Counted from the stretch's first letter, positions 1 to 32,684 are shown. The stretch is DNA of 64,000 bases from Thermoanaerobaculaceae bacterium (GCA_963717295.1 OY970330.1:2248538-2312537); one strand, 5' to 3'. The notes: generated by a model not told the origin, from the letters alone. Program-made: numbers and translations.

Positions 1-2
1 AC

Positions 3-1855: not shown

Positions 1856-1878
1856 AGAAGAGCCTGGCACTTCTGCTG
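1856..1878 (+). repeat. Variant GGCAC hairpin repeat AGAAGAGCCTGGCACTTCTGCTG
   Basis: Near-identical copy at 8622-8644; imperfect palindrome that shares the GGCAC core with the main repeat. Confidence 0.55.
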
Positions 1879-1896
1879 GCGCCTCCGTGCTTGGAA

Positions 1897-2661
1897 TCAG
1901 GCTGCCGGGTCCTGCTGGTAGAAGGCCCGCAGCACCTCGTAAAGCTCAGGGTGCTTGCGTTTGAGCTGCCCGCCCGTCTCGAAGAATGCCTCGGTTACCA
2001 CCGCGAAGAACTCGGCCGGGCTGGTGGCTCCGTAGGTGTCGATGTCAGCGGGCTGGTGCGTGGCGACCCGCGCGAGCAGCTCTTCGTACTCGGTGCCGAG
2101 CGCGTGAGCCCATGCGGAATACGAGGCACGCCGGCCGAGGTCGGGCGCGCCGTTCATGGCGCCGTCTTCGGCGTCGAGCTGGTGCGCAAACTCGTGGAGC
2201 ACGACGTTGCGGCCGTCGTGCGGGTCCGCCGCGCCGCGCCGGACAGCGTCCCACGAGAGCACCACAGCCCCGCGGACCCAGGACTCGCCCAGGCGCACCT
2301 GGTCGCTCTCGACGATAAGGTCGCCGATCTTCTGGCGGGTGTTCTTGACGACGTACGTACTGGGATAGACGAGGATCGACCCGAGATCGGGATAATAGTC
2401 GGTCTCTCGGTGCAAGAGGAGAAGGCAGGCCTGTGCCGCGATGGTGAGCTTGATCTCGTCCGTCATCGCGAGGCCGCCGCACCCTTCGAAGGATTTTTCG
2501 GCGACGAAGACCTGAATGTGGCCCTCGAGCTCTCGCTGGTCGTCGTCGGACAAGGTGGCGACGTAGGGAACGTTGCGCCGGATGATCGCGCGCTGCTCGG
2601 CGGGAAGGGGTCTCCGGCGTAGCTCTTCGCGTCGCCTCTTCTTAAAAAGGAAGTGAAACAC
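1897..2661 (-). CDS. Zinc-dependent peptidase, M90/MtfA family
   Basis: DGRNVVLHEFAHQLD and YGATSPAEFFAVVTEAFFE motifs. Confidence 0.9.
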   Translation of the reverse strand: MFHFLFKKRRREELRRRPLPAEQRAIIRRNVPYVATLSDDDQRELEGHIQVFVAEKSFEGCGGLAMTDEIKLTIAAQACLLLLHRETDYYPDLGSILVYPSTYVVKNTRQKIGDLIVESDQVRLGESWVRGAVVLSWDAVRRGAADPHDGRNVVLHEFAHQLDAEDGAMNGAPDLGRRASYSAWAHALGTEYEELLARVATHQPADIDTYGATSPAEFFAVVTEAFFETGGQLKRKHPELYEVLRAFYQQDPAA

Positions 2662-2734
2662 CGAGAAAGGCTACCACGCATCGACCTCGCCGTCGGCGGC
2701 TCCGGCGACATCGCCAGGCGGGTTACTCGCTGTC

Positions 2735-2793
2735 AGGGTCCCCAACCGGGCAAATGGAGGCGGCTTCCAAAATGACAGAGGCACCTGTTTTGG
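2735..2793 (+). repeat. Long form of the GGCAC hairpin repeat (core 2767-2793)
   Basis: CAGGGTCCCCAACCGGGCAAATGGAGGCGGCTTCCAAAATGACAGAGGCACCTGTTTTGG matches 10040-10099 and 12991-13049. Confidence 0.85.
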
Positions 2794-2868
2794 CGCGCCT
2801 GGAGGGCCCGCGAGCACCTTAGCTTATGGAGCATGGAAAGGCCCTGCTCCCTGAAGAAGGAGTGCACT

Positions 2869-3063
2869 ATGAAGATCAGGCTCTGTAAGCTCGCGCTGTT
2901 GCTCGTTGTCCTGTTGTCCTTGGCCCCGGTTCTGGGTTTGGACCAAGCCCTCGCATCGAGCCCCTGCGATGGTCTCCCAGGGTTGTGCCATCCCAAGTAC
3001 GATCCGGTCACGCACTGCTGCATCTCGGACCCGCGGTTCGACTGCGTCGACATCTGTTTCTAG
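2869..3063 (+). CDS. Small secreted 6-Cys peptide (C-C-CC-C-C framework)
   Basis: RBS AAGGAG; signal peptide; mature SSPCDGLPGLCHPKYDPVTHCCISDPRFDCVDICF. Confidence 0.7.
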   Translation: MKIRLCKLALLLVVLLSLAPVLGLDQALASSPCDGLPGLCHPKYDPVTHCCISDPRFDCVDICF

Positions 3064-3312
3064 GGCCCGCTCACCACCGGCGGCGAACGGCTCGCTCTAT
3101 ACCTGCGTGTGACGGCACCTCACCCCGGCGAAGCGGCCCCGGCAAAGCTTCGGGGTCGCCATCCGCCCCCCAGGTGCCCCGTATAGAGGACCCGCCGCCT
3201 CAGCCCATTTGACGTACGCTGGAGTTCCCATTTCTTCCAGGTTCGGCCATTCGTCGACTTCTACTCGCTGAAAGAACGACAAGCAGTGTTTCCACCCAGA
3301 CTTCTCCGGTGC

Positions 3313-3966
3313 CTACTTCGAGGCCAGAAGAGCGTTGAGCTTCTGCTCCATCTCCTCGTACGGCCGCACGCCGTGGACGATCTCCAGGACCTGGACCTTG
3401 TCGGCGCCCGGAACCCGGCGCGCCAGCACGTAGGCCGGAGTGCCGGAGATGCCAAGCATGTTGGCAGCTCGGATGTTGCCGCGGATCTCTCCATCATGGC
3501 GCCTGCCGGAGAGGCACTTCTGGAAGGCCGCCATGTCCAGGCCGAGCGCTTCGGCATAGCCTGGCAACCGGTCTGGAGTCAGGGCCCGTTGATTCTCAAA
3601 CAGAACGTCATGCATTTCCCAAAACTTGCTCTGGTCGCGTGCGCAAGCCGCCGCCGTGGCGGCCTTGAAAGCCTGGGAGTGCATCTCGAGAGGCAGGTCG
3701 AGAAAGACGAGCTCGACTCGGCCGCCGTGAACGAAGTTTTTCCTGATGGAAGGAAGCACCTCACGGGCGCTTTGGCCGCAGTACCCGCACTGGAAGTCCG
3801 ACACCTCGATAAGGACGAGCCCCGGCGAGCCCTCCTTCATGGACGGATAGTCCCCCACGGGGATCTTGCGGCCGACCTGGGCATGCGCCCACGATTGCGG
3901 TCCCAGGACGATAGCAAGCCCAGCCACGGCCACCCATCGCACGATTCCACGAATGTTCGCCATCAT
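3313..3966 (-). CDS. DsbA-family thiol-disulfide oxidoreductase
   Basis: SDFQCGYC active site, GISGTP cis-Pro loop, signal peptide, RBS GAGGAGG. Confidence 0.9.
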   Translation of the reverse strand: MMANIRGIVRWVAVAGLAIVLGPQSWAHAQVGRKIPVGDYPSMKEGSPGLVLIEVSDFQCGYCGQSAREVLPSIRKNFVHGGRVELVFLDLPLEMHSQAFKAATAAACARDQSKFWEMHDVLFENQRALTPDRLPGYAEALGLDMAAFQKCLSGRRHDGEIRGNIRAANMLGISGTPAYVLARRVPGADKVQVLEIVHGVRPYEEMEQKLNALLASK

Positions 3967-4087
3967 GATGTCTACCTCCTCTCCTATCAAGGATACAGCC
4001 AATCGGTCATTCCGTCATGGCGGGGCGTGCCGAACGGCGAAGCCGGGAGGTGGATTCCCAAATCGGGCGACACAGCACCTATCTTGA

Positions 4088-5440
4088 TCAGGCCGGCGGC
4101 CGGGAGACCTTCTCTTTTTGCTCACTGATCAGCTTGCCTTGCGCGTCCTCCACACGGACGACGAATTCTCCTTCCGGGAGCATGAGCGCGGGAGCCGGCT
4201 TGCCCGCTTCGGCGACGATCTGATCGATGGGGACGGCATCCGTCCCCTCCTTGACGGGCCGGGCCTGAACCAGGCAGCGCGGAGCCAGGAAGCAGATTCC
4301 GGCGACAAGCGGCAGAGGGGAGCGCAAGCCGCCCATGCGCAGCCACGTGGGCCGGCCGTTCTCATAGCGGCTGCGCGGATGGAACACCACCACGTCGATC
4401 GCCGGCGAGGAGGACCAGAGAGCTCCCGCGGCGCTCCTGAGCACCACCGGCTCGGCGACCAGGCCGCGCTCCACCGCCCAGCGATAGAGCGGGTGCTCGA
4501 ATTCCGGAGCGCTGTGCTCGGTCATGATCTCCTGATTGACTGTGAGCGGATCGATGCCCGTCGACTCCTTGAAGTACGCCGCCATCCACTTCGAGCCCGG
4601 GCTGGAAGCCGTCTTCAGGATGTGAGAGTAGCCGGCATGGACGAGCACCTTGGCTTTCGGGTCCTTCTGGAAAATCCGCTCGACGAGATTCCGGGCCTGC
4701 TCGCGCTCGCGCGGCTCGATCCCCTTTCCGGGCTGGAAGCCCGAGTCCCCCTCGTACGGAACGACTTGATAACCCAGGCGCAAGGCCGTCCGGACGAGGT
4801 CGCCATAGAGAGGCTCCTGGATGTAGGCGCCCGACTCCGGGGTCGGATAACCCCGTTGGACCAGGCCCGGGTCGGGACTGAGGGTCTCCGCGGCGAAGTA
4901 GGTGAAGCCCTTCCGGCGGAGGGCGGCCAGGAGCTGCAGGGTGAACGCCCGATGCTGCGGGACGTGGTGAGCTTCGTTGATCATGACGACCTGGCGGGTC
5001 CCGGCCGCGGCCTCGAGGGCCTGCAGCGCGCCGATCGGGCTATAGCCGTCGGGCGCCGCGGAAAGGGACGGCGAGCTTTTCCACGCAGGGCCGCCGAGGT
5101 CGCCATAGTGGTGTGCGCCGGCATAATCCCCGAGCCGCGGCATCACCTGCTGGGCGAGGATCGTTCGGATCACGTCGAGCGCCATGTCGTTTCCGGCATA
5201 CTCGGCTTCCAGGGCCTGAAGGCCCTGCATCTCCGCGAGGACGTTGCCGCTCTTCTCGATCCGGCTGAGCTTCCCGGAGAGCTGCTGAGCGGCGAGGTTG
5301 AACCTCGCCACGTCGGATTGAGCGGCCGGCGGCGGGGCTGGAGCCGTCGCGGCCGGGGGCGGCGTCTGGGGCGTCTGGGCCCCGGCGACGAGACCTCCCA
5401 GGCAGGCGAGCGCGACAGGGCCCATCTTCGTAATCTTCAA
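4088..5440 (-). CDS. Secreted hypothetical protein (INEAHH..HR motif)
   Basis: Long ORF with signal peptide and Pro-rich linker; TTG start after GGAGGAG; exact start uncertain. Confidence 0.75.
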   Translation of the reverse strand: MKITKMGPVALACLGGLVAGAQTPQTPPPAATAPAPPPAAQSDVARFNLAAQQLSGKLSRIEKSGNVLAEMQGLQALEAEYAGNDMALDVIRTILAQQVMPRLGDYAGAHHYGDLGGPAWKSSPSLSAAPDGYSPIGALQALEAAAGTRQVVMINEAHHVPQHRAFTLQLLAALRRKGFTYFAAETLSPDPGLVQRGYPTPESGAYIQEPLYGDLVRTALRLGYQVVPYEGDSGFQPGKGIEPREREQARNLVERIFQKDPKAKVLVHAGYSHILKTASSPGSKWMAAYFKESTGIDPLTVNQEIMTEHSAPEFEHPLYRWAVERGLVAEPVVLRSAAGALWSSSPAIDVVVFHPRSRYENGRPTWLRMGGLRSPLPLVAGICFLAPRCLVQARPVKEGTDAVPIDQIVAEAGKPAPALMLPEGEFVVRVEDAQGKLISEQKEKVSRPPA

Positions 5441-5510
5441 GATCTCCTCCCGTTGGATTCTTGTCCCGTGCGTAACGATCGAGATCGGTGAAATCTCATG
5501 CATGAAGTTG

Positions 5511-7055
5511 TCATGACGGGCTCGTTCGCTGGCCGGTCGCCTTGGGCGCCAGGTAGAGGTCTTCGGGCCTGAGGATGAACGGTGGTGGCTTCATGCGGGA
5601 GGCGCACGAGGTGTCCAGGCGGTCGACGGTTCCCTGCTCGATGACCTGCGTCCACAGCGCGTCGATGCATTCCTGACCGATCATGCCGTCGCGGGTGTGA
5701 CCCGCATCGTCGACTAGCAAGTACCGGCCATTGGCGAGACCTCGCGCCACGGACGTGCCATCGGCAGCCGGCGTGGCGGGATCGCGTCCCCCCGCCATGA
5801 TCAGCACCGGCACGACGGATACCACCGGCGCGAGGAAGCTCTCCGCGACCTTGGTCACCGGCCAGACGGCACACGCCGCTCGCTGCTGGCGTATGCGGAA
5901 ATCCCCGAGGAAGGTGCCGGCAACGGCGGCGGGTACCTCCTCATCCCGAATGAACGGAACGTCTTCCGAGCATGTGATGCCGAGGAAGTAGCCATCGCTC
6001 GTCGACGAGGTCATGTAGCGAGCGAAGAGGCTCGCCGTCTCCGCCAAGGCTTGCCAGCTCCCCTGCGCCGCGAGATGGACCTGCAACGGCAGCTCGGCCG
6101 CGAACGACGGGTCGTACAGCATGTACCGGAGGGTCTGGGCCACGCCCGAGTACGACAGGTTCAGCTCGTACCGCTCGCCGGTCTTGCGGTCCACGAGGCG
6201 CACATGCGCGGGACGTCGTTTGGCGTGCTGCAACACGGTGGCGATCTCGCGCTTCAGGTGAGGAAAGGCGTGGCCGCAGGCGGCGTCCTGGGCGCACTCC
6301 CGCAATAGCCCGTCGAGCGCCTGCTGCGTCGAGCGCGCGAAAAAGAGCGGCGCACGATCGCTGGTCGGCACCACGCCATCGAGGATGCCGGTGCGCACCC
6401 GCTCGGGATGCCGCCGCAGGTAGACGAGGGCCGGTCGCGTCCCGTACGAGTCGCCAATCACGTCGAGCTGCTCGTAGCCTAGAGCAGCCCGGACTTCGTC
6501 GACGTCGTCGACGGTGTTGTCAGTCGTGTACTGGGAGAGGTCGGCTTGGCGGCGCAGACGGTCGGCGCATTGCTTGACTTTGGCGGGAGGGCGGTATTCA
6601 TCGAGGAACCCTTGGATCGCCTGCACGCCCTGCATCTCGCTGCAAGTCAGTGGCGCCGAGCCGCCGGCACCACGCGAGTCGACGAAGAGGAAGTCGCGGT
6701 GCGCACGCAACGGCGCCAGTCGCGTCACCAGGGGCAGGCCCTCGCTGATGGACGAGGTGCCGGGGCCGCCGCTGAAGTAGGCCACCGCATCGGCGGCTCG
6801 ATCCGGTCCGATGGCGGGCAGCACGACGACATGGAGAGGGATCTTGCGTCCGCTCCTCGCCAGGCGATTCTCGTACACCTCGTATGTGCCGCAGCGGGCG
6901 TCCGCGGGCAGCTCGGACACTCCGCACGCGCCAAGTGTCAAGCGCGGAGGAGAGGCCGCGCCGGCTGGTTGTGCTGCGGATCGCTGCAGCGCCAGGAGGG
7001 CCAGAATTGCGCAGGACGAGAGCCAGACCGCGCCGAGAGACATCGGGAGCTTCAT
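5511..7055 (-). CDS. Secreted alpha/beta hydrolase (TAP-like peptidase)
   Basis: GGPG, DSRGAG, GDSYGT nucleophile elbow, DPATP and AGH motifs; signal peptide. Confidence 0.9.
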   Translation of the reverse strand: MKLPMSLGAVWLSSCAILALLALQRSAAQPAGAASPPRLTLGACGVSELPADARCGTYEVYENRLARSGRKIPLHVVVLPAIGPDRAADAVAYFSGGPGTSSISEGLPLVTRLAPLRAHRDFLFVDSRGAGGSAPLTCSEMQGVQAIQGFLDEYRPPAKVKQCADRLRRQADLSQYTTDNTVDDVDEVRAALGYEQLDVIGDSYGTRPALVYLRRHPERVRTGILDGVVPTSDRAPLFFARSTQQALDGLLRECAQDAACGHAFPHLKREIATVLQHAKRRPAHVRLVDRKTGERYELNLSYSGVAQTLRYMLYDPSFAAELPLQVHLAAQGSWQALAETASLFARYMTSSTSDGYFLGITCSEDVPFIRDEEVPAAVAGTFLGDFRIRQQRAACAVWPVTKVAESFLAPVVSVVPVLIMAGGRDPATPAADGTSVARGLANGRYLLVDDAGHTRDGMIGQECIDALWTQVIEQGTVDRLDTSCASRMKPPPFILRPEDLYLAPKATGQRTSPS

Positions 7056-7081
7056 CGCGGCGCGTCCCACCGTGCCCGCGT

Positions 7082-7528
7082 TCACGACGCGTCCGACGCT
7101 GCCTCGGGCGGCCACGCGCCGATCCGCTGCCGTAAGGCCACGATCTTTCCGAAGTGATACGCGTTATGCACCGCCACACTGCTGAGCTCGTCGGCCATGG
7201 TCACGCCTGGCTCGACCTCGACGGCCAATCGCGCGGGCTCCTGCCCCAAGGCTGCCGCAGCGCGAGCGCCGACCAGGAACACCCGCACCAAGTCGTGCCA
7301 TTGGTGCTCGTGTTCCGGCGCCGCGATCGGGTACAGGTCGCCAGCCGGAGCCGGTGCGCCCGGCTCGATGATGCTCTGCTGGTATCCCACAAGGTGCCAT
7401 AGCTCGTCGTAGATGGAGTGCGACGCGCCGTCCGGCCGGAGCGTGACTTGCTCGAGCGTTAACCCTGACAGCAGGCGCGCTCGCTCCGGGAACTCACCGA
7501 CGAGAAAAAGATGTTCGAGAATATGCAT
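7082..7528 (-). CDS. DinB-family protein
   Basis: HSIYDELWHL and HNAYHFGKI His motifs. Confidence 0.85.
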   Translation of the reverse strand: MHILEHLFLVGEFPERARLLSGLTLEQVTLRPDGASHSIYDELWHLVGYQQSIIEPGAPAPAGDLYPIAAPEHEHQWHDLVRVFLVGARAAAALGQEPARLAVEVEPGVTMADELSSVAVHNAYHFGKIVALRQRIGAWPPEAASDAS

Positions 7529-7558
7529 GACCTCACTCCCCTCTTTCCTTGGTCGTCA

Positions 7559-7595
7559 CGCGGAGACCGCTACGCACCCTTCCCCACCGGCAGAC
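7559..7595 (+). mobile_element. Tiny remnant of the RAYT-like transposase 3' end
   Basis: CGCGGAGACCGCTACGCACCCTTCCCCACCGGCAG matches 9827-9862. Confidence 0.5.
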
Positions 7596-7599
7596 TGCT

Positions 7600-8055
7600 T
7601 CACGCGATGCGCCATCCCTCACCCAATAATGGCACTGATGCCCTGGATGGCCCGCCATCACGCGCAGTCCCCGCGAACTGAGCTTCCAGCCTTCCTGAGC
7701 GCTTCGCGTTTGCTGCAGCCAGGAGGGTTCGAGTGATGCCCTCAAGACTGATCTTGGCACGCCAGCCTGCTGGAGCTCCGACCTGGCCGGCATACGCGCC
7801 GATGCACAGGTACACGAAGCGCTCGCCGGACCGGCCCTGAACCGCGGGACCGCGAAGCCGAAACGCGCTTGGAGCGCCGCCATCTACAGCTTCAACCGAA
7901 AAGTCGAAGGAGATGCGAGCTTTCGTGCTGGCGGTGGGCTTGACGAGCTCGTCGCGGCCTAGCTGGAGCGCCCACGAGATATTCGGTGGCGGATCGACCA
8001 CCGTGATGCGTAGCGCAACCGCTTCGGCTGAGGTCTTCTTGCTGGTTGCCGGCAT
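7600..8055 (-). CDS. DUF5990-family protein
   Basis: GPAVQGRSGERFVYLCIG, WRAKISLEGI and RDGGP motifs. Confidence 0.75.
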   Translation of the reverse strand: MPATSKKTSAEAVALRITVVDPPPNISWALQLGRDELVKPTASTKARISFDFSVEAVDGGAPSAFRLRGPAVQGRSGERFVYLCIGAYAGQVGAPAGWRAKISLEGITRTLLAAANAKRSGRLEAQFAGTARDGGPSRASVPLLGEGWRIA

Positions 8056-8071
8056 TAAGACTCCCGGAGTC

Positions 8072-8097
8072 GTCTAACGTAAATGCGGCTGAGCGGC
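8072..8097 (-). other. 3' half of an attC-like integron site
   Basis: Minus strand GCCGCTCAGCCGCATTTACGTTAGAC (L' box plus GTTRRRY core), 17 bp before the DUF5990 start; 5' half absent. Confidence 0.5.
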
Positions 8098-8101
8098 TGC
8101 G

Positions 8102-8533
8102 TCAGCAGTCAGCCTCGCGCAAGATCGGCTCCCCGGTCCGCGGGTTTGTGAGGGTCACATTCTCGAGCGCTCGAATGCGCCAGATCTCGTTCTGTCTTGT
8201 CAGCACTGCGAGGATCAGCGTATCCACCACGTGGGGTCCGGCCGGGTGAGCGGCCCCGGCCGCCAGGCGACTCCAGAAATGTATGACCGCCGCTCCGTCA
8301 GCTATGTGATGGACATCGATTAGCTCATTCTCGAGCGTAGAGTCCCGATAGATTGTTTCGTGAATGGGAACATGGAGCGCCACGATCTCATCGATGCCTC
8401 GGACATAGTGCCCGAAGCGATTCACGAACGTCGCGTCTTCATCGAACAGGCCGCCGAGCGCAGCCATGTCATGAGCGTTCCAAGCGGCTTGGAATGCACC
8501 GGGTGCATCTTCTGGTCTCTTCATTTTAGTCAT
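8102..8533 (-). CDS. SgcJ/EcaC-family (SnoaL/NTF2-like) protein
   Basis: AWNAHDMAALGGLFDEDATFVN..G motif. Confidence 0.85.
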   Translation of the reverse strand: MTKMKRPEDAPGAFQAAWNAHDMAALGGLFDEDATFVNRFGHYVRGIDEIVALHVPIHETIYRDSTLENELIDVHHIADGAAVIHFWSRLAAGAAHPAGPHVVDTLILAVLTRQNEIWRIRALENVTLTNPRTGEPILREADC

Positions 8534-8621
8534 GCTCGCAGGCGTTTCGCGCGAGCAAAGGCTCGGGCAAGCAAACCCAGTTCTAGGGTACCGCCGGGCA
8601 GTAATCGCGTCAATCCCGGTA

Positions 8622-8940
8622 AGAAGAGCCCGGCACTTCTGCTGCGGAGATGGGTCGAGTCCCTCGAGGCCGAAGCCGCCCGGGAAAGAGAACGCACCGG
8701 CGCTTCCGTGCTCGGAGTCAAGGCGATTCTCGCAGACGATCCCGCTCCATCGCCCATCCGCCCTCACCCGCACCGCGGGTCCACGCCGCCACCAAAGCTG
8801 CGAGGAAGGCGTTTTACGAGATCTACGCCGCCTTCGTCGGTGCCTCCGGCTCCCGCGACGTCCTCACGAGGTTGGCGTCAGGCGGGCGACTCGCCGTCAG
8901 GGTTCCCAAACCGAGCACCGGTCCCTGGCACCTCTTCCTA
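8622..8940 (+). mobile_element. Degenerate RAYT-like transposase 3' fragment with flanking GGCAC repeats
   Basis: 8647-8845 is a frameshifted copy of 9596-9800. It starts right after the variant repeat (8622-8644) and ends in an element-end-like sequence (GTCAGGGTTCCCAAACC...TGGCACCT). Confidence 0.7.
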
Positions 8941-8985
8941 CCCGCGAGCATCCCAGATCCCCTCGCACCCACTGCCTGTCGTACC

Positions 8986-9336
8986 CTAGTCCACCGGCCC
9001 TCCTCCTCCGCAGTTGAGCCGGGAGTAATCCACGCAGCGGATCGAATAGCCCGAAGGGCTGATCTGGCAGACCACGTCCGGCTGGTTCTTGCAGAGGTCA
9101 CAAGAGCAGAGGATGAAGTCGGACGGCGGGACGTACACCTCGCGCACGGCAGGGGTGCCGACGGTCAGCGAGAGTGCCGGAGCCGGGCATCGGCCGGCGT
9201 CGAGCCCGGGGCTGGCGGCCGGCGCGGCGATCGACGCCGGGAGGCCTGGGTCGGCGGTGGCGGCGAAGACGGGCGGCCCCGAGAGAAGGAGCGTTACGAC
9301 GGCGAGGAGAAGCAGGGAGGAGCGAAGACGAATCAT
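8986..9336 (-). CDS. Small secreted Cys-rich protein
   Basis: RBS AAAGGA; signal peptide; C-terminal CSCDLC..C..C..C. Confidence 0.7.
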   Translation of the reverse strand: MIRLRSSLLLLAVVTLLLSGPPVFAATADPGLPASIAAPAASPGLDAGRCPAPALSLTVGTPAVREVYVPPSDFILCSCDLCKNQPDVVCQISPSGYSIRCVDYSRLNCGGGGPVD

Positions 9337-9480
9337 GTTGATTATCCTTTCTGGCGCGCTGCTCCGGACGCATCCTCGACGAACGGCTCCGCCGCAACGC
9401 TGCCTGTCTATTTGAGAAGGTGCATCAGCGCAAGGAAAGTGAGCCTCGGTCCCGGCCGCCGCACTCGCGACGCGCGCTGG

Positions 9481-9498
9481 AAAGACACAGGCACCTGT
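9481..9498 (+). repeat. GGCAC hairpin repeat (partial)
   Basis: AAAGACACAGGCACCTGT directly before the transposase remnant. Confidence 0.75.
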
Positions 9499-9505
9499 CG
9501 GACCG

Positions 9506-9895
9506 ATGCGCTTTGCCACGGTCGAGAGGGTAACTTTCTCTCCCATACCCTGTTGGGCTCACCTGTCGCCGGTGCTCTACCGAGCCCGCATCTCGGAGAT
9601 GGTCGAGTCCATCGAGGCTGAAGCAGCGCGGGAAAGAGAACGCTCCGGCGCTTCCGTGCTCGGCGTCAAGGCGATTCTCGCGTACGATCCGCTCCATTGC
9701 CCATCCGCCCTCGCCCGCTCGCCAGCACCGCGAGTCCACGCCGCCTCCAAAGCCGCAAGGAGGGCCTTTTACGAGATCTACGCCGCCTTCGTCGGTGCCT
9801 TCCGGGAGGCGTCCGAAAGGCTCCGCCGCGGAGACCGGAATGCGCCCTTCCCCGCCGGCAGCTTCCCGCCGGCCCTGCCCTTCGTGGCTGGATAG
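9506..9895 (+). pseudogene. C-terminal fragment of a RAYT/IS200-like (Y1 HUH) transposase
   Basis: SPAPRVHAASK..FVGAFREASERLRRGDRNAPFPAGSFPP resembles the C-terminus of REP-associated tyrosine transposases (from recall). The catalytic N-terminus is absent. Several partial copies occur in the window. Confidence 0.65.
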
Positions 9896-10039
9896 CGGCA
9901 GAGCCGGCGCTCTTTGACAGCCTCACCCCCTGCTGAGGGCCAGACTCGTGAGCCGGAGGCTCGCGCAAGGGGAAGGTGTGTCCAGATTGGCGCCCGAGAT
10001 GTCCCTCATGAGGTTGTCAGCGCGGGGCTGCCCCGCCGT

Positions 10040-10114
10040 CGGGGTCCCAAACCAGAAAAATGGAGGTGGCTTCCAAAAAGACACAGGCACCTGTTTTGGC
10101 GGCACCTGTTTTGG
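10040..10114 (+). repeat. Long form of the GGCAC hairpin repeat with duplicated 3' half (putative element end)
   Basis: CCAAAAAGACACAGGCACCTGTTTTGG at 10073-10099 plus GGCACCTGTTTTGG; ~180 bp downstream of the transposase stop. Confidence 0.9.
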
Positions 10115-10211
10115 CCGATTATGGCGCTTGACTTGCCGTGTGGGAAGCGCCTGAGCGAGCTAGAATGCACGGACCGGAGAGCGGATTCTCCGGTACTACT
10201 TGGGAGGCCCC

Positions 10212-10427
10212 ATGAAGAAGATGCTACGCTGCGCCGCACTCGTCGCAATCATGAGCCTATCGTTCTGGCTTTCGAACGCTCAAGCCTTTCCTCAAAACAC
10301 CTGCGATGTCAAGCAGGGCATGCCGTGTCGCTTTATAGGGCCCTCTCAGCCCTGCCAGTGGTATGACGGGCAAGCAGGCTATTGTGGATGTGTGAACAGG
10401 GACCACTATGAATGCGCCCGCATCTGA
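10212..10427 (+). CDS. Small secreted 6-Cys peptide (C-C-C-CxC-C)
   Basis: RBS GGAGG; signal peptide ending AQA; TCDVKQGMPCRFIGPSQPCQWYDGQAGYCGCVNRDHYEC. Confidence 0.75.
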   Translation: MKKMLRCAALVAIMSLSFWLSNAQAFPQNTCDVKQGMPCRFIGPSQPCQWYDGQAGYCGCVNRDHYECARI

Positions 10428-10586
10428 GACACTCGGAATTTAGGAGGGGGCAGGATTATCCTCGTCGTGAGCGCTGGGAAGAGAATGACGAGGTCGATCA
10501 GGGTGAGTGCGGGATGAGGTGACGCATGGGGCGTCGCGGCCGAACGCCGAGGCCGCGGCGCACTGGAGGACGGACAGCACTCGGAG

Positions 10587-10612
10587 CCAAAAGATCCAGG
10601 CACCTGTTTTGG
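10587..10612 (+). repeat. GGCAC hairpin repeat
   Basis: CCAAAAGATCCAGGCACCTGTTTTGG. Confidence 0.85.
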
Positions 10613-10702
10613 AGCTGCGAGGCGTATGTCTACGTGACGGCGGGCGCGGTCCTGACCAACTTGCAGGCGGTCACGATCAATCCGTGAAGGCGGCTGTAGC
10701 GA

Positions 10703-12739: not shown

Positions 12740-12950
12740 GCAAACCTTCCTTGGAAAAGGAGATGTTAGGACGGAATTGAAACACATCGGGAGCTGAGCG
12801 TCAAGCTTCGATGACCCGCGGCCGGCGGCTCTAAGCCGGTGCATTCCTGGTGGGCCTTGTAGAACAGATCGGCGGGGACGGTCGGGACCCCATGGAGGGT
12901 GATGAGGTCGTTGTCGGCACGCGGCCGCAGCTCCTCGTTGCCGAGCGCTA

Positions 12951-13062
12951 CCAAAAGACACAGGCACCTATTCGGGCCGGTGCCGACTGTCAGGGCCTAA
13001 ACCGGGCAAATGGAGCCGGCCTCCAAAAAGACACAGGCACCTGTTTTGGGCACCTGTTTTGG
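12951..13062 (+). repeat. Two GGCAC hairpin repeats (12951-12975; long form 12991-13049 with duplicated 3' half)
   Basis: Direct sequence match; followed by a transposase-end remnant at ~13071-13117. Confidence 0.9.
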
Positions 13063-13149
13063 GGGAACGCCGCGGAGACCGCAACGCGCCCTTCCCCATC
13101 GGCAGCTTCCCGCCGGCTGGCTGCCAAGCAGCCAACGATCGACTAAATC

Positions 13150-13356
13150 TCACGGGATCAAGACCGTAATTGGCTTTTCGATAGGGCAAGCAGAAGTCTT
13201 AACGCTACACTTTTGGTTGATGTCAATTCTGTCGCAGCAATAAGTACCGGAATCCAATGCCAAGGCCATTGGTTTATGAATGGGCGCAAAACTGCCGATC
13301 AAATATCCAAAGATGATCCCAACTATCCCGCCAAGAATCCATGCACGCTTGCTCAT
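13150..13356 (-). CDS. Small exported 4-Cys peptide (CC-C-C)
   Basis: RBS CAGGAG; hydrophobic N-terminus; YCCDRIDINQKCSVKTSAC; low GC. Confidence 0.6.
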   Translation of the reverse strand: MSKRAWILGGIVGIIFGYLIGSFAPIHKPMALALDSGTYCCDRIDINQKCSVKTSACPIEKPITVLIP

Positions 13357-13508
13357 ATTGATCTCCTGCTTGGGGCGTATGCCACTGCCGCCAGGATGGC
13401 GGAGGGTCATTGAGGAGTTCGCGTCGAGGCCTTCCGATCTGACAAGCCTGCAGGGCGGGCTTGCTGCCGTGCCGTTCCCGCTGATACCGCTGGTTCTCCT
13501 CGCCCGAT

Positions 13509-13583
13509 CAAAAAGACACAGGCGCACTTGTTTTGGATCGCGCTACGAGATGACCGTCAAAAAGACACAGGCACCTGTTTTGG
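13509..13583 (+). repeat. Two GGCAC hairpin repeats (13509-13536, 13558-13583)
   Basis: Direct sequence match. Confidence 0.85.
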
Positions 13584-13756
13584 ATAACGACTTCGGTCGC
13601 AGAGAGCAAAAGAGCTACCCTCTCTAGCCTAGTCTTCCACTTCTCCCGTTTATCTGGTGAGTCGACGGGGATGTGCTGCCAGCAGAAACCTAGGCCGCCC
13701 TCGGCTGCTGTTCGACGGCACCTCACTCCCGCCTTTGTCACCATCCGACATTGCAT
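13584..13756 (-). pseudogene. Truncated cassette gene with N-terminal C-x9-C..CWQH zinc-finger-like motif
   Basis: MQCRMVTKAGVRCRR..GFCWQH; starts just after the attC-like site and is cut at the repeat. Confidence 0.55.
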
Positions 13757-13778
13757 ACCGTGGAGCTCCTGAAGTAGC

Positions 13779-13849
13779 GCCTAGCGCCTGTTCTGCTCAG
13801 CGGCCAGGAAAGCGAAGCTTTCTGGTCCGCTGGAGCAGCCGGGTTATGC
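13779..13849 (-). other. attC-like integron recombination site
   Basis: Minus strand GCATAAC..CTGCTCCAGCGGACCAG-AAAGC/GCTTT-CCTGGCCGCTGAGCAG..GCTAGGC; long stem with extrahelical bases; core has one mismatch. Confidence 0.7.
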
Positions 13850-14080
13850 GACCCACCATTAGTTTGCTACATGCCAAATGGGCCTCCACGCCGCCTCCAG
13901 CCTGCGGATTACGACAACTGCTCGAACCACCCGTTATAAAGACTCCTTGTAGTTCTCCAGCATCGAATCGGCTGCACCAATGTTTACGAAAAGGCGGATG
14001 CCAGAGATTGTTGAACATCTCGTCAAGGCGGCGACCCGAAGCTCGCGAAACACATAATCTAACTATGAGACCAGAAAACG

Positions 14081-14284
14081 TCATACCCGTTGGAAGAACG
14101 CCCGTATCCTCTGCCAGAGGCCGCCTCCTCCACCGCCGCCTGCCGGCGTCGGGCTCGGGCTCGGCTCCGGCCGTAAGCCGCCCATGATTTTGTCGCCAAC
14201 CATAACGCCTTCCTCACCTCCTACACTAGGACCACCCTCTCCTGCACTAGGACCACCATCGGCTCCGCCAATCTTGGTTCCCAT
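14081..14284 (-). CDS. Small Gly/Pro-rich hypothetical protein
   Basis: RBS AAAGGGG; lies between two attC-like sites. Confidence 0.45.
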   Translation of the reverse strand: MGTKIGGADGGPSAGEGGPSVGGEEGVMVGDKIMGGLRPEPSPSPTPAGGGGGGGLWQRIRAFFQRV

Positions 14285-14394
14285 AACAACGTCCCCTTTC
14301 TGCAGTTTGTGTCATAATACCCCTTGAAGGCAATTCCCATTGGTCATCTCGCGGATTCCACTCCATCTGAACATCCTCTTACGTCAACGAGACC

Positions 14395-14491
14395 GCATAA
14401 CCTTTGAGCGTCTATCCGAGATCCTCCCCACGAAATCATCCCGGAGTCCCTCGCGGGTTCCGGGAGGATTTCGGATAGACGCAGGTTGAAC
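14395..14491 (-). other. attC-like site fused to the IS91-like element end
   Basis: Minus strand GTTCAAC-CTGCGTCTATCCGAAATCCTCCC...GGGAGGATCTCGGATAGACGC-TCAAAG-GTTATGC. Confidence 0.65.
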
Positions 14492-15108: not shown

Positions 15109-15111
15109 ACC

Positions 15112-15217
15112 TATCGCGACCCTTCAGGCCGCACCTCTTGGACCTGCCTGGGCACCCAGGGCGATGCCCCGGGCTGAGGAATCACGACCCCTTGGGCCGT
15201 CCTGACACCGACGCCTG
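15112..15217 (+). repeat. ~100-bp REP/MITE-like leader
   Basis: TATCGCGACCCTTCAGGCCGCA..CCCAGGGCGATGCCCCGGGCT..ATCACGACCCCTTGGGCCGTCCTG matches 55461-55562. Confidence 0.8.
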
Positions 15218-17815: not shown

Positions 17816-18361
<546 letters not shown>

Positions 18362-18379
18362 TGCGTCAGTCGCTCCTCA

Positions 18380-18402
18380 CAAAAGACACAGGCATCTGTT
18401 GG
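18380..18402 (+). repeat. GGCAC hairpin repeat (degenerate)
   Basis: CAAAAGACACAGGCATCTGTTGG abuts the RBS of the DHFR-family gene. Confidence 0.7.
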
Positions 18403-18500
18403 GTCCAACCGGACGGTCATGGTGAGCGTACGTGCCATACGACGACTATACGCGCGACCGGTACAGGCCGCAACGATCGGCCGGGGTTTGGGCGCGGTCG

Positions 18501-19676: not shown

Positions 19677-19749
19677 TCCGTTTTAGTTCAACCAAACGGG
19701 AGCTTACTCCGTAAATGGCTTCAGCCACAAGAAACGTACGGAAGCAGCT

Positions 19750-25799: not shown

Positions 25800-26183
25800 T
25801 CAAGGCTTTGTGGGTTTCGGCAGGTAAATTACACCTGGAAGATCTTTGAAGTCGTCGTCGCTGGAAACCACGATCACGTCGCGGAGCAAACCCGTGGCAT
25901 ACACCATGGCGTCAGCCATGGCCAACTTATATTCCAGGCTCAGATCGGCAGCTCGTAGTGCGATCGTATCCGTGAGGGCCACGATCTGTGTCTTTCTCAA
26001 CTGGGCGACCGCGATGAGGGCGTCCTCCTCTCCCCGCTCGCGTTTGACTCGCTTGTAGACCTCATACAGGACGATCATTGGAGTCAGGATCTGCCCAAGG
26101 TCTTTGAGGTGATCCGCATACTCCTCGGCCAGAGGACCATCCGTGAAGAACTCCAGCCAACCTGAGGAGTCAATGACCTTCAG
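25800..26183 (-). CDS. vapC: VapC-type PIN-domain toxin with CTG start
   Basis: In-frame LKVIDSSGWLEFF..YEV..LAMADAMVYATG..SSDDDF. The CTG overlaps the antitoxin TGA and there is an in-frame stop upstream. Confidence 0.85.
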   Translation of the reverse strand: MKVIDSSGWLEFFTDGPLAEEYADHLKDLGQILTPMIVLYEVYKRVKRERGEEDALIAVAQLRKTQIVALTDTIALRAADLSLEYKLAMADAMVYATGLLRDVIVVSSDDDFKDLPGVIYLPKPTKP

Positions 26184-26389
26184 ACACGATCCTTTTTTTC
26201 CCGAGCTCCCTCAATGTTCATTCCCTTGAGGAAACCACGAAGTGCTGCAAGAGGACGGTCTGGCACCAGTGTGATTACGCCGTTTCTGGCAAACACCTGC
26301 ACCTGCTGGCCGGTGACCAGCGGGACTTCGCGCCGGGCGTCCTCCGGAATCTCAACTTGGTAGTCCTTGGATACGGTCGCTTGGGCCAT
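26180..26389 (-). CDS. AbrB/MazE-family antitoxin (VapB-like)
   Basis: MAQATVSKDYQVEIPEDAR; overlaps the toxin start. Confidence 0.88.
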   Translation of the reverse strand: MAQATVSKDYQVEIPEDARREVPLVTGQQVQVFARNGVITLVPDRPLAALRGFLKGMNIEGAREKKDRV

Positions 26390-26456
26390 CAGACGTCTCC
26401 CTTAATCCTCCAAGATAGTACTACGCCCGCGTCTCGGGCCGGAGGTTTTGGGAGCC

Positions 26457-27101
26457 TCAGGCCTCATCCAGGATCGTCAGCTCGCCCGACATGGGCGTTC
26501 GCGCCACAGCGATGCGGCACTCCCGCCACAGCCGGTCGATGAGCTGGCCTGAAACGGGAAGCTCACGGCCTCGCCGATAGCCCTTCCGCTCTCCTTGCGG
26601 ACCGAAGAAGGCCCAGCCTTCGGCGCGGGACGGATCGTGCCGCAGCCAGTAGACGAGCCCACCGCAGCGAGACTGATGAAGCCTGGCGGCCCAGGCCTGG
26701 GGTAGCGCATAGGGAACGAGCGTGCCGATCTCGGCAGTGACGCCGAAGCCGCTGGCCTCGCGAGCGGTCAGGTCCGCGATCGAGAGCTCTCTGGGAACCG
26801 GCAATTCGCGGAGGCGCCGCTCCTGGAGGAACTCACGGGAGACGATCCACCGTTCCCGGTCGGCACCCAGAAGCTCCAGGAGGGCTGCCAGGGGATCGCT
26901 GGCCAGGTAGCAGGTGCCGTGTGGAGCCGGGAGGTCGAAGCGTCCTGCCATGGAGTTACCGAACCACCAAGGACCTTTCCCCTTGCGGACCACCCGGAAA
27001 AGAACCCTCTCGGGATCGAGCCAGCGAGAGGGAAACAGCCTCAGCTCGGCCGGATCGTCCGGCGGAGGGCCCAGGCTCGGGGTCTGCCGGTCCCGGCTCA
27101 C
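26457..27101 (-). CDS. RES-domain toxin (NAD+ phosphorylase family)
   Basis: GRFDLPAPHGTCYLA..AALLE..QAWA..GLVY..RHD motifs. Confidence 0.8.
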   Translation of the reverse strand: MSRDRQTPSLGPPPDDPAELRLFPSRWLDPERVLFRVVRKGKGPWWFGNSMAGRFDLPAPHGTCYLASDPLAALLELLGADRERWIVSREFLQERRLRELPVPRELSIADLTAREASGFGVTAEIGTLVPYALPQAWAARLHQSRCGGLVYWLRHDPSRAEGWAFFGPQGERKGYRRGRELPVSGQLIDRLWRECRIAVARTPMSGELTILDEA

Positions 27102-27632
27102 TTAGGCGAAACGCCGTGCGGCGTCGCGAGCGAGCCCCAGGAGGAGGTCCAAGTCGCCGCCGGAGCGCAGTGCCTGGACGACGGATTGCCCGCGCAGGTC
27201 CTTCGAGGGAGCCACCAGCCAGCCGGCGAGGGTCCAATCGTCCACCGCGCTGTCACGGAAGGCCTGGAGGATCTCGGCCAGGCCCGGCAGCACTTGGTTG
27301 CGGTCGTCGAACTGGAAGATCGGATACACCATCACGCCGTCGGCGGTCTTCAGCCCCAAAAGGGTACGCCGCTCCCTGCGGTCGGCGATGGCCTGCCGCG
27401 AGACGCCGCCAAGGATCTTCGCCACCTGTCCGGTGCCGTAGAACGGCCCCAGGAGATCGTCCCACCGCGATGGGCTGGGAACGATCTCCAACATGCGGCG
27501 GGCGAGGTCCCGGGGCGAACCGATCCCCTCCAGCGAGCGGCCGGGGGCGTCGAACGGCGAGAGCCGCTCCTCGAGCCCCTCCTTGACGTGCTGAGTGATC
27601 TCGTCGATGAGGGCATGGGCTTTCCGCGTCAT
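27102..27632 (-). CDS. Putative antitoxin (HTH plus Xre/MbcA-like C-terminus)
   Basis: GVSRQAIADR, YPIFQF and WLVAP..L.G.S motifs; directly upstream of the RES gene. Confidence 0.75.
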   Translation of the reverse strand: MTRKAHALIDEITQHVKEGLEERLSPFDAPGRSLEGIGSPRDLARRMLEIVPSPSRWDDLLGPFYGTGQVAKILGGVSRQAIADRRERRTLLGLKTADGVMVYPIFQFDDRNQVLPGLAEILQAFRDSAVDDWTLAGWLVAPSKDLRGQSVVQALRSGGDLDLLLGLARDAARRFA

Positions 27633-27689
27633 GATCAGACCCTACACCCGCTGGGCAGGCGCGTCAAGGGCGTCAAGGGGAAGTCCCCC

Positions 27690-28250
27690 TCACCCCAGAT
27701 GAAAGAACGCCCGCAGCTGCGCCAGCATCTCGTCGAGGTTGGCGCGGCGAAACTCGTTGCGATAGGCCTCTTCGAAGGCTTCGCCGACGGTCGTGCGTTC
27801 CTGCGGCGAGAGCTCGCCGAAGGGACGGCCGCCGTTGAGCTCCTGAAGGGCCTTCTCGGCCGGCGCGCTGCGGCCGGACCACCAGGTCTGGAGGCGCAGG
27901 GCCTCGTCGTAGAAGGCGTAGACGGGGATGCGCAGGTTGTCCTTGCGCCAGAGGAAGTGACGCATCAGCTCCTTGTGGGCGTCCCGCGGGAAGATCCGCA
28001 GCTCCCAGCCGGGCAGCTCCTTGACCATCCGCACCCAGGTGGGGAGCGTGTGGTAGACGTCGGGGCACCAGTCCTCGCCGATGGCGACCACCTTCAGGGG
28101 GGGCAGCGGCCGCAGCACCTCCACATCCTGCGGCGTGTGGATGGGATTGCGGAAGATCTCGTCGAGCACCTTGCCGTTGCGGCGGACGGTGCGCCGGTAG
28201 TTCTCGTAGAGCAGGCCCTGGTCCCAGACTTCGAGCGGTAGAGGATTCAT
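27690..28250 (-). CDS. Thioredoxin-family protein (WCPD)
   Basis: IGEDWCPD and RIP motifs. Confidence 0.8.
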   Translation of the reverse strand: MNPLPLEVWDQGLLYENYRRTVRRNGKVLDEIFRNPIHTPQDVEVLRPLPPLKVVAIGEDWCPDVYHTLPTWVRMVKELPGWELRIFPRDAHKELMRHFLWRKDNLRIPVYAFYDEALRLQTWWSGRSAPAEKALQELNGGRPFGELSPQERTTVGEAFEEAYRNEFRRANLDEMLAQLRAFFHLG

Positions 28251-28347
28251 CGTTGGAGGATAGCAGGTCCCCGGGCGTCACCGGCGGGTGTGGCGCGTGT
28301 GGTAGATTCTTCCGTAAGAGTCCTGTACACCTTTGAAGGAGGTCGCG

Positions 28348-31176: not shown

Positions 31177-31295
31177 GGGCTTCGTACCCCAAACGCTGGA
31201 AGTCCGCCAGGCAACTCAATGGGGGGCCAACGTGCCGGTTGGCACCCCCGAGGTTGGTTCGGCCACCAACGAATCACAACGCGCGGCGACTTTCC

Positions 31296-32063
31296 TTACG
31301 GGTGAAAGCACGCCTGATCGGGAATGGGGTCATTCGGTATCTCGCCCGATTGGTAACCATAGCTCCTGAGGACAGTGCCGCCGAAGTCACGAACCTCAAA
31401 TCTCAGGAAGCCGCGGCCAAGACCGTAGTAGTAGTACTCGCTCCCTGAAAGATCATCAAAGGGGGATGACATAATGAGCGTGGGTAGAGTACCAATTGTC
31501 CCACCGTAGTTGTAGCTACTGTAGGAGACGGTCGATTGGTACTTACTGCAGCGTCCAGGATCAGTAGAAACATATTGGCAGGGACAGGAGTTGCAATTGT
31601 TGTAATGCATCGTGCCCGCGGAGCATGAGAAGAACCGATTCAAGTTTCTGTAGGTCTGATTTCCACCAATACACACAATTCGGGGCATCCAGTTCGCTCC
31701 GAGGTAATATCCCAGGTATCCTGGCTGCCAAACTCTCGATTGCGGAGAGTTGTCCTGCATGTTTTCTGCCGTAATGTAGATCCAATTGCTATCATAAGTA
31801 TAAGTCTCGGATGAGTACGGGTTACTGAACTTGATCATCTCAAATTGGCTGGGGCCATACAGAAATTTGCGAAGATAAACCAGCGAACCATCAGAGCCCT
31901 GAAAAATGAGCTTCGCCGTTTGCCAGCCCGAGTAACTTGGTATGAAGTAGGCCGTCGAATCAGTCCACGTATTACAGACTGGCGGCGGCGGATCGGCTAG
32001 GCCTACGGTTGCGACAAACAGCAACAGGGCGTAGGCTGAGAAACCAAGGATATGACTTTTCAT
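31296..32063 (-). CDS. Secreted hypothetical protein (low GC, Cys/Tyr-rich)
   Basis: RBS GGAGGA; signal peptide; 255-aa ORF. Confidence 0.7.
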   Translation of the reverse strand: MKSHILGFSAYALLLFVATVGLADPPPPVCNTWTDSTAYFIPSYSGWQTAKLIFQGSDGSLVYLRKFLYGPSQFEMIKFSNPYSSETYTYDSNWIYITAENMQDNSPQSRVWQPGYLGYYLGANWMPRIVCIGGNQTYRNLNRFFSCSAGTMHYNNCNSCPCQYVSTDPGRCSKYQSTVSYSSYNYGGTIGTLPTLIMSSPFDDLSGSEYYYYGLGRGFLRFEVRDFGGTVLRSYGYQSGEIPNDPIPDQACFHP

Positions 32064-32372
32064 TGGCTGATCCTCCGGCAGTTCGTTTCAGTTAGGCAAG
32101 CGATTTAAAGTAACACTGTGGAGCCAGCTACTTGCCGCCGGAAAGTTTAAGCCCCTTCCCAACCGCTGTCAAACAGTGTCTTTGTGTGTTGCGCCTTAAA
32201 GATGCTCGCTTACCAGAAGGCATACCGACGAGAACGGAAGCACGTAACGAAAAGTTCCGGATTCGCGGACACCGCCTTGCCGACACGTCCCAAACCGGTG
32301 GCGCCGAACTCGATCGGCGTGGTGGATCACGTTGCTGGATTCAAGGTTCCCCTGTTCCTCATGGTGAGGCCT

Positions 32373-32399
32373 CCAAAAAGACACAGGCACTTGTTTTGG
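32373..32399 (+). repeat. GGCAC hairpin repeat
   Basis: CCAAAAAGACACAGGCACTTGTTTTGG preceded by ATGGTGAGGCCT. Confidence 0.85.
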
Positions 32400-32428
32400 A
32401 ACACTAGGAGTTTAGGGGAGGCGCAGGA

Positions 32429-32623
32429 TCATGCCTTCTGCCAAGGCGGCAAACCAATATGCTTCTCCCAGCCAGGCCAGTCACTGGTACCAATTTCCTC
32501 ACGGCCCAGATTCTCCTTCTCCCACTCAAGCAGCTTAGCTTTCTCCTCAGAAGTCAGCAGCTCATCGTAGGCGTTGATCATTTTTCGGTACCATTCTAAA
32601 CCTTGCTCGACTGGATTAGGCAT
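32429..32623 (-). CDS. Small hypothetical protein between two repeats
   Basis: 64-aa low-GC ORF with protein-like composition. Confidence 0.55.
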   Translation of the reverse strand: MPNPVEQGLEWYRKMINAYDELLTSEEKAKLLEWEKENLGREEIGTSDWPGWEKHIGLPPWQKA

Positions 32624-32662
32624 TCTTAGATTCTTCCGTTAGGAGAGCACGATCAAGCGACG

Positions 32663-32684
32663 AAGACACAGGCACTTGTTTTGG
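32663..32684 (+). repeat. GGCAC hairpin repeat
   Basis: AAGACACAGGCACTTGTTTTGG, 19 bp past the carbonic anhydrase stop. Confidence 0.8.

Follow-up and report, generated by a model that had tools for sequence, protein, structure and literature searches.

What is the short motif that recurs between small genes in one stretch of a Thermoanaerobaculaceae bacterium genome, and does it serve to move those genes? The stretch (the window in what follows; 64,000 nucleotides, GCA_963717295.1 OY970330.1:2248538-2312537, here also G000:C1:2,248,538-2,312,537) belongs to a single-contig genome of 8.78 Mb with 66.7% G+C from the Thermoanaerobaculia, and an earlier note, made from its sequence, had proposed that a same-strand hairpin repeat delimits gene cassettes that a RAYT-like HUH transposase stacks into arrays without an integrase. 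Our analysis shows that the repeat is linked to an HUH enzyme as its end motif. For the locus as a whole, the explanation that we hold with middling confidence is that the repeat is the end motif of an array-resident HUH element and a site of cutting and rejoining, at which adjacent DNA would occasionally be carried along.

The motif was found at all 13 sites where 11 copies and two variants had been reported, within 1-3 nt, but only five of the 11 copies (2767, 10073, 13023, 13557 and 32373) represent the full 27-mer with at most three mismatches, for which 100 dinucleotide shuffles gave 0 matches. The other six are indel, truncated or arm-diverged forms: the copy at 10587 has a 1-nt deletion and the one at 13509 an insertion, the 3' arms at 12951 and 18380 have diverged, the copy at 9481 ends after CCTGT, and the one at 32663 has lost its 5' arm. 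The conserved sequence is TTCCAAAAAGACCCTGGCAC, followed by a T-rich arm. The variants at 1856 and 8622 are a related, upstream-type form that also precedes the full transposase copies A and B. All 13 sites (H0 to H12 in Table 1) are on the plus strand, a bias well beyond chance (two-sided p = 2.4e-4), and 12 of them lie outside called open reading frames (ORFs), the site at 8622 falling within an unsupported N-terminal extension of a SnoaL ORF. Five of the 13 are positioned 15-97 nt past the 3' end of a minus-strand gene. Nearly all copies in the window are one single variant, and they therefore appear to have arisen in place, not to have been imported with foreign genes. In the whole genome, the core GACACAGGCAC is found 10 times on the plus and twice on the minus strand, and because exact cores are almost confined to the window, a genome-wide repetitive extragenic palindromic (REP) element could be ruled out. 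A sigma-54 promoter (TGGCAC) was also considered and discarded on its spacing, and a search of the window against Rfam at gathering scores gave 0 matches.

The link to the enzyme comes from a repeated 1.28-kb unit outside the window, which encodes a protein of 306 aa and has the long form of the motif at its 3' end. The genome contains 10 full transposase copies (50-95% protein identity, tblastn), all of them outside the window, and ~25 fragments, most of which reach the C-terminal part and few of which are N-terminal only (tblastn); the window is without an intact transposase and has solo motifs, tandem half-motifs and 5'-truncated scraps only. The reported distance of ~180 bp between a transposase C-terminus and the long form was confirmed, with 9895 as the last position of the fragment and 10073 as the first of the motif. 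In nine of the 10 full copies, the motif core follows the gene end after 187-256 nt, mostly 190-215 nt (copy c3450416 has no clear downstream motif), in related loci 26 ends of genes or fragments were inspected and 23 of them are followed by a motif, and the motif variant changes in step with the protein lineage. The proposal that the repeat is the end of the enzyme's element is borne out by this constant position and by the lineage-matched variants. A position weight matrix (PWM) built from 32 transposase-gene ends and applied at a threshold of >=18 bits gave 53 hits in the genome and 5 in the reversed genome that served as control; the hits cluster at transposase loci, and the largest cluster in the genome is the window itself. 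In 31 related loci that were oriented by their transposase, 60 hits are on the plus and 5 on the minus strand, with 0 in the reversed control. A related motif is often present 140-190 nt upstream of the transposase start codon, as is seen at A and B and at no fewer than five related loci, L023 and L025 among them. This upstream motif lies 22-50 nt outside the block that is common to A, B and L086, the downstream motif being constant; L086 matches L012 where compared and is thus not independent of it. The first ~85 nt past the transposase stop codon are strongly conserved and contain the box GCTCTTTGACAGCC, and RNAalifold analysis of 18 copies of the 3' region found compensatory change in only two of the 15 predicted pairs. 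At genome positions 5,561,784-5,563,136 (L078), a full transposase is followed by six motifs in 1.3 kb with repeated pieces of the 3' region, so that the tail of the element is amplified in tandem.

The enzyme is a Y1 HUH protein of the RAYT/IS200 fold. In an alignment of 19 proteins, the HUH motif H62-F-H64 is present in 18, the exception being L027 with QFD, Y123 is invariant (19/19), and a C-terminal extension of ~170 aa is conserved. In an AlphaFold model of the 306-aa protein (mean predicted local distance difference test score 86.8), Y123 is located within the helix 114-130, and the tyrosine motif in the family reads YVLSQ, YILAN or YVLAH. The top Foldseek match of the model is the E. 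coli RAYT-REP complex 4ER8 (E = 2.4e-6, target template modelling score 0.63), and the remaining ones among the 24 matches listed at E <= 1e-3 are likewise transposases, including ISDra2, IS608 and IS200; a direct sequence search against solved structures returned a chance match only (E = 0.45). A Pfam scan at E <= 0.01 gave Y1_Tnp (PF01797) alone, with 21.3 bits against a cut-off of 23, and so assigned no IS91-type transposase; many close homologues carry a precomputed PF01797 match. In NCBIfam, REP_Tyr_transpos (NF047646) scored 46.5 bits (E = 3.3e-12), below its cut-off of 80, and transpos_IS200 (NF033573) scored 14.1 bits, below its cut-off of 55. The fold match, the HUH motif, the tyrosine and the profile scores together mean that the RAYT-like HUH assignment of the earlier note was correct as far as fold and catalytic motifs go, but the protein falls short of the scores that define classical RAYT and IS200 members. 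At least 1304 relatives were found at E <= 0.001; many of them go under the name RayT or transposase, and the ones named by organism come from Thermoanaerobaculia.

The junctions at the motif suggest what has happened there. In at least eight independent variants, the motif is followed by tandem copies of its 3' half, each of which begins within the conserved GGCAC. In L013, L014 and L022, a full gene and its motif are directly followed by a same-strand, 5'-truncated copy of the gene; in L021, ~2.2 kb separate the motif of the full gene from the truncated copy. The left-hand fragment at H6 (12835-12954) has a counterpart in G012:C54 that continues inside a 469-aa ORF, and the gene was therefore cut at H6. 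The transposase scraps that had been noticed in the window were recovered by tblastn at 8654-8889, 9497-9892 and 52110-52190 and by blastn at 13068-13117, but the one at 7560-7595 was recognized by eye only. Several motif copies abut truncated genes or transposase scraps, and these look like deletion scars rather than tidy cassettes. Taken together, the tandem halves, the truncated copies, the fusions and the cut gene indicate that DNA is broken and joined in a strand-specific manner at the motif, and this role is well supported. A model in which solo motifs are excision footprints, composed of an upstream 5' half and a downstream 3' half, was refuted, because the solos in the window are either of the pure downstream type or of the pure upstream type. 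A search for an empty site of copy B yielded no clean one, because the orthologous region of G031:C99 is rearranged.

The reading that we consider evenly poised between right and wrong would thus begin with a mobile element of ~1.3 kb that encodes the 306-aa single-tyrosine HUH enzyme and has the repeat as its end motif. The element family resides in, and is co-oriented with, integron-type cassette arrays of Thermoanaerobaculia, and the repeat clusters at ~1.8-18.4 kb and 32.4-32.7 kb of the window lie in two variable hot spots of this kind. The cognate full copies at 7.24 and 8.01 Mb would act in trans, one DNA strand would be cut and rejoined strand-specifically at the motif, and the products would be solo motifs, tandem 3' halves, 5'-truncated transposase genes fused to the motif, and truncated host genes. 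The intervening accessory cassettes would have been gathered mainly by attC recombination and by horizontal transfer into the hot spot, and DNA just 3' of the motif may occasionally be carried along or re-joined, which would resemble a one-ended mobilisation as in IS91/ISCR, or a peel-and-paste of the motif-to-motif interval. This conservative reading accounts for every type of junction seen. The fold of the enzyme, its link to the motif, the orientation bias, the setting in arrays and the make-up of the junctions are shown; that the junctions are the work of the enzyme, the place of its cut, and any movement of genes by it are inferences.

Several points weigh against this reading. The full transposase copies have diverged to such an extent in protein sequence that none looks recently active, and the near-identity of the motifs in the window next to these diverged transposases could mean selection for a host function. 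The hairpin described in the earlier note turned out to be weak, with DNA folding energies of 0 to -3.7 kcal/mol; a stem around the core was found in 35 of 73 family variants, with 31.7 expected from shuffled arms (p = 0.25), and column-wise covariation in the ungapped alignment of the 73 variants gave no run of paired columns. For seven of the 10 full copies, the search of 20-kb pieces gave no attC; the attC counts around full copies are a lower bound, because the covariance model used for them (R1, built from 12 attC sites of this genome) covers one attC class. Furthermore, with an origin near 5.45 Mb and a terminus near 1.3 Mb, as placed by cumulative GC skew, 43 of the 53 motif hits (p = 5.6e-6) and the sense strand of nine of the 10 full copies (p = 0.02) are on the leading-strand template, which is the opposite of the bias of IS608. 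The motif strand on the leading-strand template runs counter to the coding direction of the cassette genes and is thus, by convention, the integron bottom strand. Either activity resides in the complementary strand, or the orientation of the arrays itself sets the replichore bias.

The association with cassette arrays raises the question of how much of the structure is due to integrons. Textbook attC sites (GCCCAAC...GTTGGGC) exist in the genome, many of them at transposase loci. The two attC sites that had been recognized in the window (Table 1) are recovered by R1 by construction, both being in its training set, and they are all that the model detects in the window; a strict scan by pattern and fold found nothing, as its thresholds were too tight, and a relaxed scan was unspecific. 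In the related loci, attC is co-oriented with the transposase in all 10 hits (at six of 31 loci), co-orientation was also seen at five loci of this genome, and in L015 the whole element is placed between two attC sites. The sole integron integrase match over the cut-off in the genome (TIGR02249) is at 1.837 Mb, and none is in the window; it looks truncated, because it covers model positions 131-315 in an open frame of 203 aa. At genome positions 1,828,000-1,837,300 (L074), six same-strand attC sites lie downstream of the 3' end of this truncated-looking match, and this would be what is left of an integron whose integrase is unusually oriented. Copies of a 107-bp repeat family (window 15111-15220) adjoin integron-integrase fragments at 0.629, 1.837 and 8.754 Mb, and this family may interrupt intI; together with two other repeat families of the window, at 51731-52110 and 55230-56575, it has 33, 54 and 32 matching places in the genome, respectively. 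A 0.7-kb segment (14399-15095) opens with an attC-like palindrome and has three further genome copies with 89-93% identity and copies in many relatives; its ORF is without a Pfam family.

A contig of the relative G002 (C38) is collinear with window positions 14.4-34.9 kb (81-91% identity), and upstream of the shared stretch, where the window has the motif array, it carries six same-strand attC sites (plus strand) with entirely different genes. A second variable interval lies between a 947-aa gene (ending at 31176) and a 627-aa gene (starting at 33488), and its length and content differ in four genomes (Table 1). The claim of an integrase-independent capture was not supported: the motif arrays stand where a relative has a classical attC array, and the transposase itself is co-oriented inside attC arrays. 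Many of the cassettes were probably supplied by integron recombination, and gene capture driven by the HUH enzyme is plausible but unproven.

The rival that survives best is the model of the earlier note itself, in which the motif is an analogue of attC and the interval between two same-strand motifs is excised as a single-stranded circle with one motif and pasted at another motif, so that arrays grow gene by gene without any integrase; we regard it as tentative and rather unlikely, with two or three junctions in its favour. The geometry required for it is seen in G006, where the upstream and downstream motifs of the element are near-identical direct repeats, and it is in keeping with the upstream motifs at A, B and the further loci named above. 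Motifs past the 3' ends of five co-oriented genes are in the usual place of attC, and the sole integrase match, as described, looks truncated. Single array genes recur alone in other genomes with 86-98% identity and in a different context each time, and some of their segments start at a motif: the amidase segment begins in G012 exactly at the end of that genome's own motif variant, in a three-motif array headed by a transposase fragment, and in the window 26 nt past H5, and a 300-bp peptide-gene segment begins 2 nt past H1 and recurs in G002:C685 in inverted orientation, 80 bp past the motif of a full element. In G006, a full element has its upstream motif at a distance of 85 nt from RibD_C. 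Same-strand motif pairs enclose unrelated genes in L021, L024, L028, L029 and L032, among them genes of the BNR/sortilin, GYF, neprosin, GmrSD and aldo-keto reductase types. However, segment boundaries coincide with the motif in some cases and not in others. At its right end (12811), the amidase segment is without a motif both in the window genome and in G012, RibD_C has none in one of the two other loci read (L006), and the boundaries of the AAA_14, DinB and DoxX-like homologues (L003-L005, L007, L008) are without a clear motif, one of the three AAA_14 loci (L004) having a loose core-like word ~45 bp from the boundary; all of this speaks against the cassette reading. In addition, the motifs of the window are one variant in both halves, neither hybrids nor donor variants, many junctions consist of truncated genes or truncated transposase, and the attC sites and arrays interleaved with the motifs account for the cassette structure without a new system. 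The full form of the idea, that the HUH enzyme took over cassette exchange, with the 27-nt motif as attC analogue, two direct copies bounding an excisable single-strand cassette, genes shuffled and captured without an integrase, and nearly all attC sites of one array in this genome replaced by the motif, we consider unlikely.

In a further rival, which we find hard to believe, the solo motifs would be domesticated REP-like elements that serve the host, for instance by terminating transcription or by protecting the mRNA 3' ends of the convergent genes, and the enzyme would only maintain them. The motif does consist of an A-tract, a short stem and a T-tract just past gene ends, its copies are far better conserved than those of the transposase, and H7 with its half-repeat scored as terminator-like on the minus strand. 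However, in a simple terminator scan of window positions 1-20000, only one of 12 motif sites passed, and the total of 15 is no higher than the 12.8 +/- 3.7 obtained with shuffles; moreover, the ~50 motif copies in 8.8 Mb are concentrated at transposase loci, and several stand in scrap clusters rather than after genes. That the motif is an unusually short attC variant for the integron integrase is scarcely credible: it shares its strand with the attC sites and its position relative to cassette genes, but it has 27 nt and attC sites have 57 nt or more, the RYYYAAC/GTTRRRY boxes are absent, no motif site is among the hits at E <= 1 of R1 with its one attC class (the sole R1 overlap with a motif, on the minus strand at 18307-18395 with 10.2 bits and E = 1.7, spans H10), and the motif is linked to an HUH gene in every lineage. 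We retain the array-resident element that cuts and rejoins at its end motif as the preferred reading.

The features of the window and the lengths of the variable interval are collected in Table 1. Some further observations concern the neighbourhood. Part of a DoxX-like gene (513-891) recurs at 6.41 Mb with 95% identity and on several G002 contigs with 95-98% identity, and this gene is therefore also mobile or multi-copy. Positions 25800-28274 carry PIN-domain and RES-domain genes that are toxin-antitoxin-like, and the blocks 26452-27681 and 27685-28274 are swapped in order relative to G002:C38. A 1693-aa gene (36036-41354) is absent from a collinear stretch of G031:C73 and has paralogous matches in the window (46.3-51.5 kb) and elsewhere in the genome. 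BLAST self-matches at many offsets suggest an internal tandem repeat at 15305-16327, within which 15809-15903 is a perfect-looking palindrome of 95 nt. About 20 soil-metagenome runs (from 16 studies) each contained ~1/5 of the sampled words of window positions 8500-18499, and none contained half.

Table 1. Motif copies, transposase remnants and attC-like sites in the window, with the variable interval as it appears in four genomes.
Feature	Position or length	Strand	Remark
H0, upstream-type variant AGAAGAGCCTGGCACTTCTGCTGG	1856..1882	+	PWM 19.5 bits; 15 nt from 3' end of M90 peptidase gene
H1 long form, final ~50 nt of element 3' region + motif (2767-2793)	2717..2793	+	
Transposase C-terminus-like scrap	7560..7595	+	by eye; directly follows end of DinB cassette homology (7559)
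H2, upstream-type variant fused directly to internal transposase fragment	8622..8646	+	
Transposase fragment, aa ~210-288	8654..8889	+	tblastn; motif variant CCCTGGCACCTCTTCC next at ~8923
H3, motif cut after CCTGT, fused to transposase codon ~175	9481..9503	+	
5'-truncated transposase gene, aa 175-306, 89% identity to copy A	9497..9895	+	tblastn
Conserved 3' untranslated region of element, box GCTCTTTGACAGCC, small GAGC...GCTC stem	9896..10072	+	18-copy alignment
H4, full motif + one tandem copy of 3' half GGCACCTGTTTTGG	10073..10114	+	
H5 (10587-10612) + 26-nt degenerate remnant like another motif variant	10587..10638	+	
Amidase_2/SH3/InlB-repeat gene segment	10639..12811	-	98% identity to G012 segment
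H6, own-type 5' half, diverged 3' arm; truncated gene fragment (12835-12954) on left	12951..12976	+	
H7, motif, ~35 nt of upstream element sequence, one tandem 3' half	13023..13062	+	
Transposase C-terminal scrap, aa ~285-302, right after H7	13068..13117	+	blastn
H8 + H9, two motif copies, 20 nt between	13508..13583	+	
attC-like site	13778..13856	+	51.1 bits; in training set of model
Second-class attC-like imperfect palindrome, start of repeated 0.7-kb segment	14392..14488	+	by eye
H10, solo motif beside GAGGAG of RibD_C, 97 nt past end of AAA_14 gene	18379..18404	+	about 14-18 nt to RibD_C start
H11, solo motif, 30 nt past end of 64-aa minus-strand ORF	32373..32399	+	
H12, solo motif without 5' arm, 19 nt past end of carbonic anhydrase-like gene	32663..32684	+	
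attC-like site upstream of carbonic anhydrase-like gene	33198..33285	+	41.2 bits; in training set of model
Transposase C-terminal scrap, aa 280-306	52110..52190	+	tblastn
Additional motif variant	53814..53844	+	PWM 21.5 bits
Variable interval, G000 (window)	2.3 kb		H11, H12, carbonic anhydrase-like gene, attC
Variable interval, G002	5 kb		
Variable interval, G034	18 kb		includes homologues of window 58.6-64.0 kb
Variable interval, G031	~3.1 kb		transposase scrap joined to GTTAGGC, attC-like cassettes

To our knowledge, integrons are the textbook case of single-gene stockpiling, and all known ones need a tyrosine recombinase and attC. The enzyme described here belongs to a large uncharacterised HUH family that is co-oriented inside cassette arrays of soil Acidobacteriota and leaves its end motif in places normally taken by attC. 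Even in the conservative reading, this would be a novel type of element resident in arrays, one that shapes the accessory gene pool by deleting, truncating and re-joining cassettes. The bold reading, if true, would mean a second, integrase-independent cassette system, and a compact enzyme for cutting and pasting single-stranded DNA at a short defined site. Literature searches found no account of a Y1-HUH end motif at inter-cassette positions, and the closest report, PMC7923331, describes an IS200/605 element beside a cluster of attC sites lacking integron-integrases (CALIN) and speculates on integrase-free mobilisation.

Among known systems, RAYT/REPtrons share the Y1 HUH fold, with 4ER8 as best structural and REP_Tyr_transpos as best NCBIfam match, and a repeat that both flanks the gene and occurs solo. 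However, RAYTs have about one copy per genome according to bioRxiv 10.1101/119735, whereas 10 full copies are present here, with ~50 repeats and not hundreds. The repeats are direct (60 plus versus 5 minus), whereas RAYT REPs are inverted, and the family described here has an extra C-terminal domain of ~170 aa and is found inside attC arrays. Its YVLSQ also differs from the class-2 RAYT signature Y---NP, as the latter is given in PMC6006769. With IS200/IS605 elements (IS608, ISDra2), the family has in common the Y1 HUH enzyme, related same-strand motifs on both sides of the gene, multiple copies with partial ones, and strand specificity; part of it has a Y-x-x-x-Q-type tyrosine motif, as in the class 1 signature given in PMC6006769. 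The diverged copies, the opposite strand bias, the tandem half-ends and the strong excess of 5'-truncated copies set it apart. A third group, TnpA-Y1 class 3, is described as rare, found in Acidobacteria and Planctomycetes, and of mixed IS/REPtron traits (Quentin et al. 2018, PMC6006769). Compared by description, its motifs are NHVH and YV[VI][AENY]EQ and those found here SHFH and YVLSQS, and its repeats have a CnGA foot, of which none was seen in our motif.

ISCR/IS91 elements resemble the element described here in having an HUH enzyme and a fixed end a few hundred bp past the gene, and in their association with integrons. Their one-ended mobilisation of adjacent genes (PMC7923331) would be the mechanistic parallel, but the transposase here is of a different family. 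Integron cassettes are similar in that same-strand imperfect palindromes follow co-oriented genes, and a relative has its attC array in the same neighbourhood. The specialisation of a mobile family on cassette arrays is also known from IS1111-attC elements and group IIC-attC introns. In contrast to these attC-targeting elements, the motif is not an attC and the element lies between attC sites, not inside them, and the enzyme is of the HUH type and not a tyrosine recombinase, a DEDD transposase or a retroelement.

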